64,000 nt of DNA from Obrimoposthia wandeli (lineage: Eukaryota): assembly GCA_977020255.1 (NCBI GenBank), contig CDROCS010002093.1, positions 434,001 to 498,000 on the forward strand. Direction: 5' to 3'. The position numbers and the translations under genes are program-made. This document shows positions 55,915-59,621 of this stretch, piece after piece (position 1 is the first letter of the stretch; every line of letters begins with the position of its first letter). The notes beneath the pieces are model-generated. The model was not told the origin of the DNA, did not search any database, and saw only the letters and a list, made by a program, of their open reading frames with translations.

Positions 55915-57489
55915 TCAGTTCCTAAACTCAGGAACTTCAATGAAACAACTTAAATTACTCATATAGTACGGTCTTTCCTCGATATGTTCATATATCGTTG
56001 GCTGGTACTCTGGTGCTGGTTCATTTAGGAATGGTGGTCTTGGTATACTTATGTTGAATTTTTGTAAATTCATTTGACCTGTTTGTCTTGCGAGATCATG
56101 ACGTTTCTTTTTTGATCTCAACTCTATCTTTGTACAACAAAACAAGATGAGTAATATTAATATTATAAATCCAATGATCAATACCAGTATTGGATTGACC
56201 AATTCTAGAATACCATAACGTATTGCTGGTATCCCTTTACTCTTGATGGTTAATATTTTAAATTTATGTGCACTTTGGTTGGACATGTCACTGAGAAGCA
56301 CTATTTTAGTTTGTCCAAATGTATAATCTTCACATGTGACAACACTAACTCCGTAATGTCCATTAAGTGTTTTCATTTCGGTCGCTGGAACTATACACAT
56401 TCGTCCTGGACATCCTTTCACACACATGATCATCACGGCTCTACTGTGGGACGTCTTGATTATTTCTAGGGTGTTGTCTAGATTTCTCAAATGTAAATTA
56501 TATTCGGATAGTGTCATCAGTTCAGCTTTACTGGTTGGCATGGCTTGTAGTACCAATCCAATTACTACTCCGTAGATCAATCCTTGTGCAACGGTGCACA
56601 GGGCCTTGACTGTCCTTTTGCAAAGGGTTTTAATTATCATTCGTTTGAGAGATATCTGTTTCTGGTTGGATCGTTTTGTTGTCTGTCGTTGTTTTGACAT
56701 TTCTTCGATTCCAGTTTTTCCGATAATCAACTGTACCTGTTTACCTTGTATCATCAACTTTCCGAATCCATTTTTGGCGGACAAGCATGTTTTATGTCCT
56801 TCCATCGTTTCAATTATCACTCTCTTACTTCCATACTCACGTGTTTTGATGACATCGCCGTCGAATATATACGTCGGTCCTTTTGTATCAGCATCTTTTT
56901 GTATTTCCTTTACAATTCGTTTTCTTCGCTTGCATCCGGCGAATGTTGTTGATATTCGGTCAAGTGTGCGCTGTCGGTCAGCTTCGTAATCTATTTGGAA
57001 TTGATTCAGTATTCTGTTTTGTGGATAGAATATCGCTTCATTCACTATGTTATCCTCGATCCTTTCGTCTAGATACACAAGTACTTTGTTCGTTGGTCCA
57101 TTTGGTCTTTTCATCTTTACAAACTGAAATCTTTTACTGTCGGTTCTCATAGATCGGAGACATTTTCGGATGATCCACACATCAATTAATCCTAACAACA
57201 CTACTAGCATCATCAGTGCCAGTGTATGGTACTGTATGATGTAGTTGTGGATTTCTTTGAACCTGGAACTATTTCCGTGGTTGGAGCCTATCTCTTGTAC
57301 TCCCGTTATCGGCATTAGACAACTTAACAAGCCAAGTGCTAGCAATCTTTGGTATTGATAGCTGGGCACTGTTGTTGTAGTTTCATTTGTTTCTCGTTGT
57401 TGCTTCCTCTTTTCAGAGTACTTCTCTATTTCTCGAACGAGTAACGGTTTGAATTCCGTGTCTGGTCTATTCTGTTTGATGTAGACCAT
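55915..57489 (-). CDS. Multi-segment membrane protein; N-terminus completes the pseudo-DUSP
   Basis: 524-aa ORF with four hydrophobic segments; starts EEAMVYIKQNRP (DUSP C-terminal helix). Confidence 0.75.
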   Translation of the reverse strand: MVYIKQNRPDTEFKPLLVREIEKYSEKRKQQRETNETTTTVPSYQYQRLLALGLLSCLMPITGVQEIGSNHGNSSRFKEIHNYIIQYHTLALMMLVVLLGLIDVWIIRKCLRSMRTDSKRFQFVKMKRPNGPTNKVLVYLDERIEDNIVNEAIFYPQNRILNQFQIDYEADRQRTLDRISTTFAGCKRRKRIVKEIQKDADTKGPTYIFDGDVIKTREYGSKRVIIETMEGHKTCLSAKNGFGKLMIQGKQVQLIIGKTGIEEMSKQRQTTKRSNQKQISLKRMIIKTLCKRTVKALCTVAQGLIYGVVIGLVLQAMPTSKAELMTLSEYNLHLRNLDNTLEIIKTSHSRAVMIMCVKGCPGRMCIVPATEMKTLNGHYGVSVVTCEDYTFGQTKIVLLSDMSNQSAHKFKILTIKSKGIPAIRYGILELVNPILVLIIGFIILILLILFCCTKIELRSKKKRHDLARQTGQMNLQKFNISIPRPPFLNEPAPEYQPTIYEHIEERPYYMSNLSCFIEVPEFRN

Positions 57490-59621
57490 CGCTTCTTCTG
57501 GTGTATGACCATGGTAGGCGCTAACATTGTACCTTTTTTCTGATATATCAGAACGCCGTTTCCTTCTGTGACTTCGGCTTGAATTGTTTGAGTCAATTTC
57601 ATCAGATGTTGTTGTGCATCATTTATTTCTCGATTGGAAGCATGTATATATCGAGTTGTGTCGTCTTCAGTATTTTGACACAGACTGATTATCTCGTTTC
57701 CGACTTCAACAATGTTGATTACTCGGTTGATACTGTGGAACTTTAATCCAGCAGTATCTATATCTCCTGGATAACATAAATATACTTTCGGCATTATCTG
57801 CGTAATTTTGTCGACTCCGGCTAAGAATAACCCGGTCAACGATAGTGCTTGGAGGGAATTCTTTTCCTTTGGATCCTCAGGGATGTCGTCCATCCGTCTC
57901 TGTTCTTGTAACATAAGTTGGTAATTTGACAATTGTCCCAAAAAATTAAGATTTGGGTTTGCAATACTTCTTCTCTCCTGTAGGTATTTCAGTGCTTCTA
58001 GTACCTGCATTCGTCTAGTCTTTATTAGATACGCTAATACTAGGGTTGCTGATCGAGAAATTCCTTTCTGACAATGTACCAACACTTTTCCTTGGTTTCG
58101 GAGTTCTCTGTGAAGTATTTCGTTTGTTTCTACGAACCATTCGAGAAGATTAGCGTCCATTGAGTCTTTTACTCTTAATGTCATAGCTCTGATTGTCTGG
58201 TATTGTGATTTGTGATTCATGGTAACGTTGATCACGTATGTTATCCCTTGTTCCAACAGTTTCTTTTCATCTGTTGCATCTTCCACATTTCCGAGGTATA
58301 ACTTATCTGGAATGATCTCGCTCATTGGTGGCAATAATTCTGACTCTTCAAGTTTTAGTCTTTCTAATCTCTTCTCTATCTGTTCGTCGATGTTGGATAA
58401 TTTCGCCAGTTTCTTTCCTCTCAGCATTCGTATTGCTGGAGAGATATTCATCTTTGTCTCTGATGTCTGTTCCTTTGTTGAGTCTTCTTCCGACTCGGTC
58501 TCTTCTGCAGATTTAATTCGTCTTTCTTGTATATTCTGTTTCACGAATTCTATGTTTTGTCTTTTTCTGCTTTCTTTAGCGAATTCAACCTCCATGGTTC
58601 TTTCGAATCGCTCTATTATGTTATCTTCGGATTCTGTTGATTCTGTATCGTTACTTTCCGGTTCGCTGTCTTGACTAGACTCGCTCGAAGGGTATTCTGG
58701 TATGTCTGTCTGAACTGAAATTAATGAAGGGGTTAGAATGATTGGATTGACTGGTCCTGCGTATCTGTGAATCGGATACGGTATTACACTATCTTTAAGT
58801 ATCTCAACTTGGAACTGTGCTCCATAGCACATGACAATTGTTTCTAATTTACCCATGATGGACAATCCATCGAAATAGGTAACATTCAGCTTAGATATCG
58901 GTGTTTTCGCATAATTGATTAAATTGACTCGTATCTCAGTTGATGACGGCCATCGATTTTTTAGTAAAATTATAATTTCGTCGTTTATCGATGTAATTAC
59001 ACTTGGCGCGGATGATACTATTTCAGCATGATATTTTGGCTGGATTGAGTTGGTCACTTGTTCTCGGATCATATTGATTCTTTGTGGTTTTTTATTTTTA
59101 GCTTCCCACTTCCGGTATCCGCTGTCAATGCGTAACTCTGCCGTTGCTTTGATGATTTTATTGTTGGTCACTTCCGGATGGGTTGGCGAATGAAATCCTT
59201 CTATTACGCTCAACCTTACAGATACTTCCGTTTGATCTGTGTCTAACCGGTGAGATTCTGGTATACAACATACAATTGTCTTTCCATCAAAGTATTTGGT
59301 GTCCATCTGACAAATTATCTTTTCGGTGTCTGCGTCGATTAAATGAACTCTCATAATATCTCTTTTCCCATGTGAATTACGTAATACCATTATTACATCG
59401 TGGTATTCTTGTTTGAGTCTTTTTGGTGTACCATGCAGTATGTGACCACCGGCCGGTTCCTTTTCTTCCTGACTGGCTAGTCCTGCTTCAGTACTGTCAT
59501 AGTTCTGCCATGCAACTATGTTTGGTGTCAATGTGATTTCGATTATCACTTTCTCAGTCGTAAACACATTGGAATTTTGATGAAGCGCAGCGACTAGTGT
59601 ATTTCCGTCGTAGTATGACAC
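57426..59621 (-). CDS. TIG-like repeats + dual-specificity phosphatase + pseudo-phosphatase
   Basis: EIIPDKLYLGN..GITYVINV..VKDS..VLVHCQKGISRSATLVLAYLI..R..ANPNLNFLGQL; second degenerate domain ITQIMPKVYL..INRVINI..VLIYQKKG. Confidence 0.92.
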   Translation of the reverse strand: MSYYDGNTLVAALHQNSNVFTTEKVIIEITLTPNIVAWQNYDSTEAGLASQEEKEPAGGHILHGTPKRLKQEYHDVIMVLRNSHGKRDIMRVHLIDADTEKIICQMDTKYFDGKTIVCCIPESHRLDTDQTEVSVRLSVIEGFHSPTHPEVTNNKIIKATAELRIDSGYRKWEAKNKKPQRINMIREQVTNSIQPKYHAEIVSSAPSVITSINDEIIILLKNRWPSSTEIRVNLINYAKTPISKLNVTYFDGLSIMGKLETIVMCYGAQFQVEILKDSVIPYPIHRYAGPVNPIILTPSLISVQTDIPEYPSSESSQDSEPESNDTESTESEDNIIERFERTMEVEFAKESRKRQNIEFVKQNIQERRIKSAEETESEEDSTKEQTSETKMNISPAIRMLRGKKLAKLSNIDEQIEKRLERLKLEESELLPPMSEIIPDKLYLGNVEDATDEKKLLEQGITYVINVTMNHKSQYQTIRAMTLRVKDSMDANLLEWFVETNEILHRELRNQGKVLVHCQKGISRSATLVLAYLIKTRRMQVLEALKYLQERRSIANPNLNFLGQLSNYQLMLQEQRRMDDIPEDPKEKNSLQALSLTGLFLAGVDKITQIMPKVYLCYPGDIDTAGLKFHSINRVINIVEVGNEIISLCQNTEDDTTRYIHASNREINDAQQHLMKLTQTIQAEVTEGNGVLIYQKKGTMLAPTMVIHQKKRWSTSNRIDQTRNSNRYSFEK

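Follow-up and report, generated by a model that had tools for sequence, protein, structure and literature searches.

We found two dual-specificity phosphatase (DUSP) folds in a giant retroelement of Obrimoposthia wandeli. A copy of this element lies in a stretch of 64,000 nucleotides (contig CDROCS010002093.1, positions 434,001 to 498,000; G000:C2093:434001-498000 in the 1.35-Gb, AT-rich assembly), which is called the window below. The first fold, DUSP-A, is a predicted catalytically active domain of the type found in mitogen-activated protein kinase (MAPK) phosphatases (MKPs). The second, DUSP-B, is by its residues a pseudophosphatase, in which the loss of the catalytic Cys and Arg is fixed in the family. 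Purifying selection holds both folds. They are in-frame modules of the element's polyprotein after the integrase, not a separate gene, and their host is, judged by its architecture, a Burro-type giant gypsy long terminal repeat (LTR) element. As far as our literature search reaches, this would be the first MAPK phosphatase that we could find in an LTR retrotransposon; the Burro element class itself is already known. The positions of all features are collected in Table 1.

DUSP-A comprises a full DSPc domain with an HC-X5-R loop and a general-acid Asp, which places it in this phosphatase class. A Pfam scan of its open reading frame (ORF) gave no rhodanese match, and by sequence DUSP-A is thus like an MKP catalytic domain and not a canonical MKP. 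Its best PDB matches were DUSP10, 16, 4 and 1, and MKP structures differed from our model by a root-mean-square deviation of 1-1.7 Å. Those relatives in the protein database that carry names are DUSP8/16/7. An intact HCQKGISRS P-loop and a VKDS loop had been reported in the earlier note, and both were confirmed. The catalytic Cys and Arg were also invariant in all 37 further loci (36 distinct), which were chosen by DUSP score and are biased toward intact loops; the general acid was Asn in one of the 37. In addition, DUSP-A has an LNFL motif that aligns with the JNK-docking (FXF) motif at the start of helix 5, FNFL in MKP7 and L449..M452 in MKP5. Among 40 copies of the element, picked by DNA similarity to the window, N, F and L of this motif are kept in all and the first L in 39. 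Shortly before DUSP-A lies a basic-hydrophobic stretch, IRMLRGKK (58410-58433, minus strand), which we take to resemble a MAPK D-site docking motif.

The second DUSP fold with a degenerate loop, IYQKKGTMLAP, had likewise been proposed before and holds up. The loop was found at 57516-57548 (minus strand), with Cys replaced by Gln and Arg by Leu, and the general-acid Asp is lost as well. When read from a natural sister copy, DUSP-B aligns with positions 6-127 of the 133 in the DSPc model (E=3e-6, which falls short of the curated cut-off) and matches DUSP28 with E=1e-4. Identity between DUSP-B and DUSP-A is 16% (E=0.002). An AlphaFold model of both folds, built from a 43-row alignment, consists of two domains with the same strand and helix order (mean predicted local distance difference test (pLDDT) score 86, predicted template modelling score 0.62). 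A fold search with this model led to DUSP structures of one domain each, which spanned ~40% of the query; MKPs were among the best. The C-terminal helix EEAMVYIKQNRP, assigned in the earlier note to the next ORF, does lie in another frame (57463-57498), but only through a frameshift private to the window copy. The active and dead pair therefore stands at the level of sequence, with JNK/p38-type MKPs as the closest relatives. None of the 104 matches from a protein-database search spans both folds (at most 62% of the query), and tandem DUSPs among the database relatives mostly keep HC-X5-R in both domains. A genome search for a host donor like STYXL1 gave only element-like intronless matches. 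The Lys-Gly common to the loops of DUSP-A and DUSP-B is only a hint on whether DUSP-B may be a duplicate or a separate capture. In a first tree that included DUSP-B, the long branch of this fold caused distortion, and the tree offers no basis for its origin.

The earlier note had called the phosphatases retrotransposon-encoded, which we confirm, and had missed their context, a Burro-type polyprotein with inhibitor-of-apoptosis (IAP), Bcl-2-like and Env modules. The modules follow each other as Gag, ubiquitin-like (Ubl) segment, Bcl-2-like segment, Env, protease (PR), BIR, RING, a second PR, reverse transcriptase (RT), ribonuclease H (RH), integrase (IN), two IPT-like domains (X1 and X2), DUSP, pseudoDUSP and a membrane cassette. 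The polyprotein measures ~5,400 aa; long frames run in a common register from ~8,820 to ~25,245, about 5,475 codons from stop to stop. This end-to-end frame was assembled from overlapping unbroken frames of different copies, none of the fetched copies being intact throughout, and it would be translated as one polyprotein. One natural copy has an unbroken frame of 3,633 codons containing Env, PR, BIR, RING, PR, RT, RH, IN and both DUSP folds, and the phosphatase region is in frame with the integrase in sister copies. Env lies in frame between gag and pol (PF24664, E=3e-91), and BIR and RING were matched in sister copies with E=1e-11 and 2e-11; the BIR is deleted in the window copy. The Ubl and Bcl-2-like segments between Gag and Env are weak matches (E=0.014 and 0.019, below cut-off). 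The BIR-RING module has an aspartic-protease domain with DTG on either side (sister copies L027 and L038). No MATH, ankyrin or dUTPase-like domain, all of which vary between Burro elements, was matched by Pfam at E<=0.01 in the element pieces scanned. Seven copies with both ends located are 22.4-24.1 kb long and have TG...CA LTRs and a primer-site-like motif; five of these seven show a 4-bp target-site duplication. The two LTRs of a copy, compared in 5 copies, mostly show 96-99% similarity.

The element is present in the host genome in at least hundreds of copies. A DNA search with the region gave 40 scored matches, all at 95-100%, and 5,440 first-look candidates, a number that does not equal a copy number; all 118 matches of a protein search were at 97-100%. 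We fetched 39 other copies, 20 of them as stretches of 20 kb, of which 12 were extended to 30-40 kb. In 31 of the 40 copies, both DUSP folds are free of stops and frameshifts. No homologue of the element was found among proteins of 3,167-5,000 aa, which is a weak test, and a peptide-pattern search of viral contigs gave no match to it.

To describe selection, each variant was counted once per column, using only variants shared by at least 3 of the 40 copies, so that the counts are not tree-based. The neutral expectation, derived from the measured mutation spectrum, is 72-73% nonsynonymous (N). Shared variants amounted to 4 N and 16 synonymous (S) in DUSP-A (w=0.10, p=2e-6 versus neutral) and to 4 N and 28 S in DUSP-B (w=0.06, p=4e-12). 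DUSP-B is as strongly constrained as DUSP-A. The RT-RH-IN region had 0 N and 52 S, X1+X2 had 9 N and 41 S, and the membrane cassette is also under selection (w 0.12-0.32). Singletons were nearer to neutral (w 0.33-0.81). Pairwise comparisons with five more diverged copies (dS 0.3-0.7) gave w=0.09-0.22 for DUSP-A and w=0.07-0.23 for DUSP-B, values that include decay after insertion. The earlier note had looked to the P-loop and to dN/dS among copies for a refutation of its proposal; H, C and R of the P-loop are kept in 40/40 copies, and both folds lie far below neutral.

The window copy itself is a decayed member of the family. It measures 17.8 kb, from 50845 to L011:6677, and is flanked on both sides by the target-site duplication CATA. 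A ~3.7-kb deletion at 63967/63968 took the Bcl-2-like segment, Env, the first protease and the BIR, and there is a further deletion at the 5′ LTR/gag junction, plus stops. Compared with sister copies, the frameshifts near 60573, 59631 and 57510-57516 are private to this copy. Sequencing reads (four runs, one sample) showed flat cover, with the breaks near 57516, 59631 and 60573 unique to the window copy. The 731-aa ORF is a fragment, as the frameshifts near 59631 and 60573 sever the phosphatase part from the integrase, and the DUSP region is split between ORFs because of the private frameshifting deletion near 57510-57516.

We also compared DUSP-A with the phosphatases of the host. The best single-domain match among 1.84 billion representatives was the rhodanese-MKP P0117 (47% identity), the rhodanese part of which matched three genes in the host genome (14 candidates scored). 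These rhodanese-MKP genes, on G000:C934, C2967 and C2055, each have two introns inside the catalytic domain. The C934 gene, the apparent ortholog of P0117, is the closest host gene, with 46% over DUSP-A (58% in the C-terminal and 35% in the N-terminal half). DUSP-A was likely captured from a fragment of a host MKP mRNA, because it has neither the introns nor the rhodanese domain of the host DUSP10-like genes. In a 56-row tree without DUSP-B, the three host genes fall inside the DUSP10-like clade (support 95/81). For later trees, ten more long-branch or redundant rows were removed. Constrained trees that join DUSP-A with the host paralogues lay 6-9 log-likelihood units above the free quick tree (approximately unbiased (AU) test, p-AU 0.63 and 0.69), and a tree of the C-terminal half groups DUSP-A with these paralogues (96 SH-aLRT, 5-row set). 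A donor among the host DUSP10-like genes would thus be only moderately supported. The profile search and phylogeny asked for in the earlier note have yielded MKPs and host DUSP10-like genes as relatives, without pinning the exact donor.

What might such a phosphatase do? By analogy with MKP5 and MKP7, DUSP-A may dampen host JNK beside the IAP and Bcl-2-like cargo and so blunt stress-induced apoptosis, a proposal to which we give about even chances. A host MKP mRNA would have been captured, bringing the catalytic domain into the polyprotein, where it was paired with a dead partner. DUSP-A could then be freed by the element's proteases, or tethered to the membrane via the signal-like segment after DUSP-B; the predicted topology puts the DUSP pair in the cytosol, immediately before this segment. 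Freed DUSP-A would dephosphorylate host JNK where the element is expressed, probably preferring it over p38 and ERK as MKP5 and MKP7 without docking domain suggest, and might act jointly with the BIR-RING and Bcl-2-like modules. The least certain step is the part of DUSP-B, which, tentatively and with less than even probability, could be a non-catalytic scaffold or docking module replacing the lost rhodanese domain.

Damping of JNK is favoured because MKP5 and MKP7 catalytic domains act alone on JNK, because LNFL is kept and because JNK drives apoptosis in planarians. The catalytic domains of MKP5 and MKP7 alone bind and dephosphorylate JNK1 via L449-M452 and FNFL, respectively; the MKP7 catalytic domain by itself reduces the apoptosis that UV induces, and the Km of MKP5 for p38 is 280-fold higher when the docking domain is missing (PMC4802042). 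Moreover, loss of tissue leads to JNK-triggered apoptosis in planarians (PMC4055413), and the Burro1 BIR-RING is described, second-hand, as protecting stem cells from apoptosis (PMC13465017). Several observations weigh against the JNK reading. An LNFL-type motif is present in all MKPs and is no proof of JNK selectivity, and the MKP7 catalytic domain also acts on p38 (PMC4802042). DUSP-B has no LNFL-type docking motif. In the copy that diverges most, which also carries a frameshift, the general acid is Asn and the residue following the Arg is Leu. The linkers are constrained as well (10 N and 26 S, w=0.145), the difference between DUSP-B and linkers is not significant (p=0.14), and RT/IN is under tighter constraint than either fold (p=0.005 and 0.019). 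As to the donor, the 56-row tree puts DUSP-A outside the DUSP10-like clade without a supported placement; it groups with host paralogues only in the tree of the C-terminal half, and AU constraints that are not rejected do not show a clade.

Virion-borne VH1-type phosphatases are a precedent for action on the own particle. Being in frame with Pol, the DUSP would likely be packaged behind the integrase and strip inhibitory phosphates from Gag/Pol. MAPK restriction of the yeast element Ty1 offers a further precedent: phosphorylation of Gag has a part in its repression by pheromone, and its inhibition by the MAPK Fus3 is post-translational (PMC7175516). However, DUSP-A retains a MAPK-docking motif and is nearer to MKPs than to viral DUSPs, and most of the other cargo (BIR-RING, Bcl-2-like, Ubl, RINGs) points to host pathways, which makes this role improbable. 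We consider it similarly unlikely that the element broadly dampens MAPK and innate-immune signalling (p38, ERK, non-MAPK), in which the IPT-like pair might serve as a Rel/NFAT decoy. FXF docking is described as general to MKPs (PMC4802042), Atlas scores X1/X2 as TIG at 0.85, which is a lead only, and the host genome has one RHD_dimer gene. Yet DUSP-A is without the rhodanese domain that is needed for ERK and p38 docking in MKP3 and MKP5 (PMC4802042), X1 and X2 did not match the host IPT domain significantly (p=0.56 and 0.88), and a single-sequence AlphaFold model of X1-X2 reached a pLDDT of 32. A purely structural role for one or both folds, as folded spacers or as scaffolds for binding and without phosphatase function, would suit the constrained linkers and the diverged, decayed copy that lost its general acid, but is very unlikely given that Cys and Arg are invariant in the 40/40 similarity-chosen copies and 37/37 further loci and that constraint acts on amino acids, beyond the reading frame alone.

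The element can be set beside known systems. Like the planarian giant gypsy elements Burro/GYPSM1 (PMC6431247), it has one giant ORF, a CCHC-bearing Gag, an Env that is in frame and separates gag from pol, a BIR and a RING, the order PR-RT-RH-IN and a very high copy number; the weak ubiquitin-like and Bcl-2-like matches lie where Burro elements have such segments. Judged by this architecture, the host is probably a triclad planarian. Unlike these elements, the one described here has a polyprotein that runs ~1,750 codons past the integrase (two IPT-like domains, DUSP, pseudoDUSP and membrane cassette) and contains two protease domains, is followed by three RING ORFs and is 22-24 kb long. MATH and ankyrin were not found in the pieces scanned here, and MATH is also absent from ORF1 of D. 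tigrina (PMC6431247). No DUSP or MKP carried by a retrotransposon came up in our literature search. The available parts of the Burro review PMC6431247 and of PMC8532177 name no phosphatase; figures or supplements of Grohme 2018 and Lee 2026, the primary papers on Burro, may already include the domain.

DUSP-A shares with DUSP10/MKP5, DUSP16/MKP7 and DUSP8 the catalytic fold, HC-X5-R, the general Asp, the AYL helix and the PNLNFLGQL docking tail, but has no rhodanese domain or introns, sits inside a retroelement polyprotein and has a dead fold behind it. Tandems of active and dead phosphatases are known from receptor PTP D1/D2 and Cdc14 A/B, and pseudophosphatases from STYX and MK-STYX. As in the tandems, an active domain and a dead fold homologous to it share one chain; here, in contrast, both folds are small and of VH1/MKP type, and the dead one is C-terminal without Cys, Arg and Asp. 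Viral DUSPs (poxvirus VH1, baculovirus PTP, giant-virus DUSPs), which are free-standing genes of DNA viruses, are also small, share the fold and have a virus-like carrier. However, identity to them is 10-34% in the listed structural matches versus 46-48% to host-type MKPs, and the VH1-type analogy drawn in the earlier note gives way to an MKP catalytic domain without docking domain.

Apoptosis and ubiquitin modules are already known from Burro elements, one of which is reported to support planarian stem cells. If the proposed role is true, a selected MAPK-phosphatase module would let Burro interfere further upstream, at the kinase through which wounding sets off apoptosis. One could imagine, though we find it doubtful, that this lineage is a multi-pathway anti-death toolkit, with a captured JNK phosphatase stripped of its docking domain and a dead duplicate as targeting module, which at hundreds to thousands of copies would set the JNK/apoptosis threshold of host stem cells. 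The element is also a natural experiment on how an active and dead phosphatase pair arises and persists. For annotation, nearly all intronless DUSP matches in the genome are this element and not host genes: a DSPc genome scan gave 150 scored matches, and the top 30 loci, which were fetched and examined, all belong to the family.

Table 1. Features of the giant element copy, in window positions unless stated otherwise
Feature	Position	Strand	Basis or remark
DUSP-A, MKP-type catalytic domain, predicted active	57909..58325	-	Pfam DSPc E=5e-35, whole model
P-loop HCQKGISRS (catalytic Cys and Arg)	58050..58076	-	H, C, R in 40/40 copies
General-acid loop VKDS	58161..58172	-	Asp in 40/40 copies
LNFL docking motif	57939..57950	-	alignment to DUSP10
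DUSP-B, pseudophosphatase fold	57403..57806	-	loop YQKKGTML; frameshifted near 57510-57516 in window copy only
Tandem beta-rich domains X1 (59115-59459) and X2 (58752-59027)	58752..59459	-	duplicated
RING-PR-RT-RH-IN of polyprotein	59594..63876	-	stop near 61213, frameshifts near 60573 and 59631
Deletion junction stretch	63877..64000	-	junction 63967/63968; Gag beyond window end
C-terminal membrane cassette	54682..57345	-	hydropathy and natural copy; premature stop 55915-55917 in window copy
Three small RING-finger ORFs after polyprotein	53040..54558	-	starts 54558, 54198, 53552
3′ LTR	50845..52744	-	TG...CA; internal 55-bp tandem repeats
5′ LTR	L011:4941-6677, beyond window		inner end truncated

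As for the neighbouring modules, X1 and X2 resemble each other in a Smith-Waterman comparison with shuffles (p about 0.001), and BLASTP of X1 against X2 gave no match. X1-X2 had no Pfam, PDB or protein-database match, and their IPT/TIG-like fold is a lead only. A weak TIG match in a 4,506-aa frame was discarded, since this frame sits on a bacterial contig. The membrane cassette combines three segments that resemble signal peptides with three more spans of hydrophobic residues, Cys-containing ectodomains and Pro/Tyr-rich tails, which suggests several small membrane proteins that would be cut by signal peptidase. It had no Pfam match under E=0.03; one Pro/Tyr-rich tail weakly matched WBP-1 (E=0.04). 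A decayed relative at L073:2996-5196 (minus strand) is 31-56% identical over the cassette, and the ~1.1 kb upstream of it contain nothing that can be recognised as a DUSP. The cassette may predate the phosphatase capture. The three RING ORFs match zf-RING_2 in Pfam (E=4e-8, 1e-7 and 8e-6) and are also present in sister copies.

Elsewhere in the window, a decayed BEL/Pao-like gag remnant was found at 47898-48973 (minus strand; DUF1759, E=0.0015). A short ORF at 50275-50748 (minus strand) fuses fragments of HSP60 (E=1e-10) and SPT5 (E=2e-7). It is located within inverted repeats at 45309-45499 and 50716-50843, continuing at L011:6678-6740, and the giant element is inserted within one arm of these repeats. 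Together they are possibly a DNA element carrying gene fragments. The assembly also includes the bacterial contigs G000:C400 and C3844, and a tandem satellite with a 16-bp unit occupies 29721-30500 of the window.

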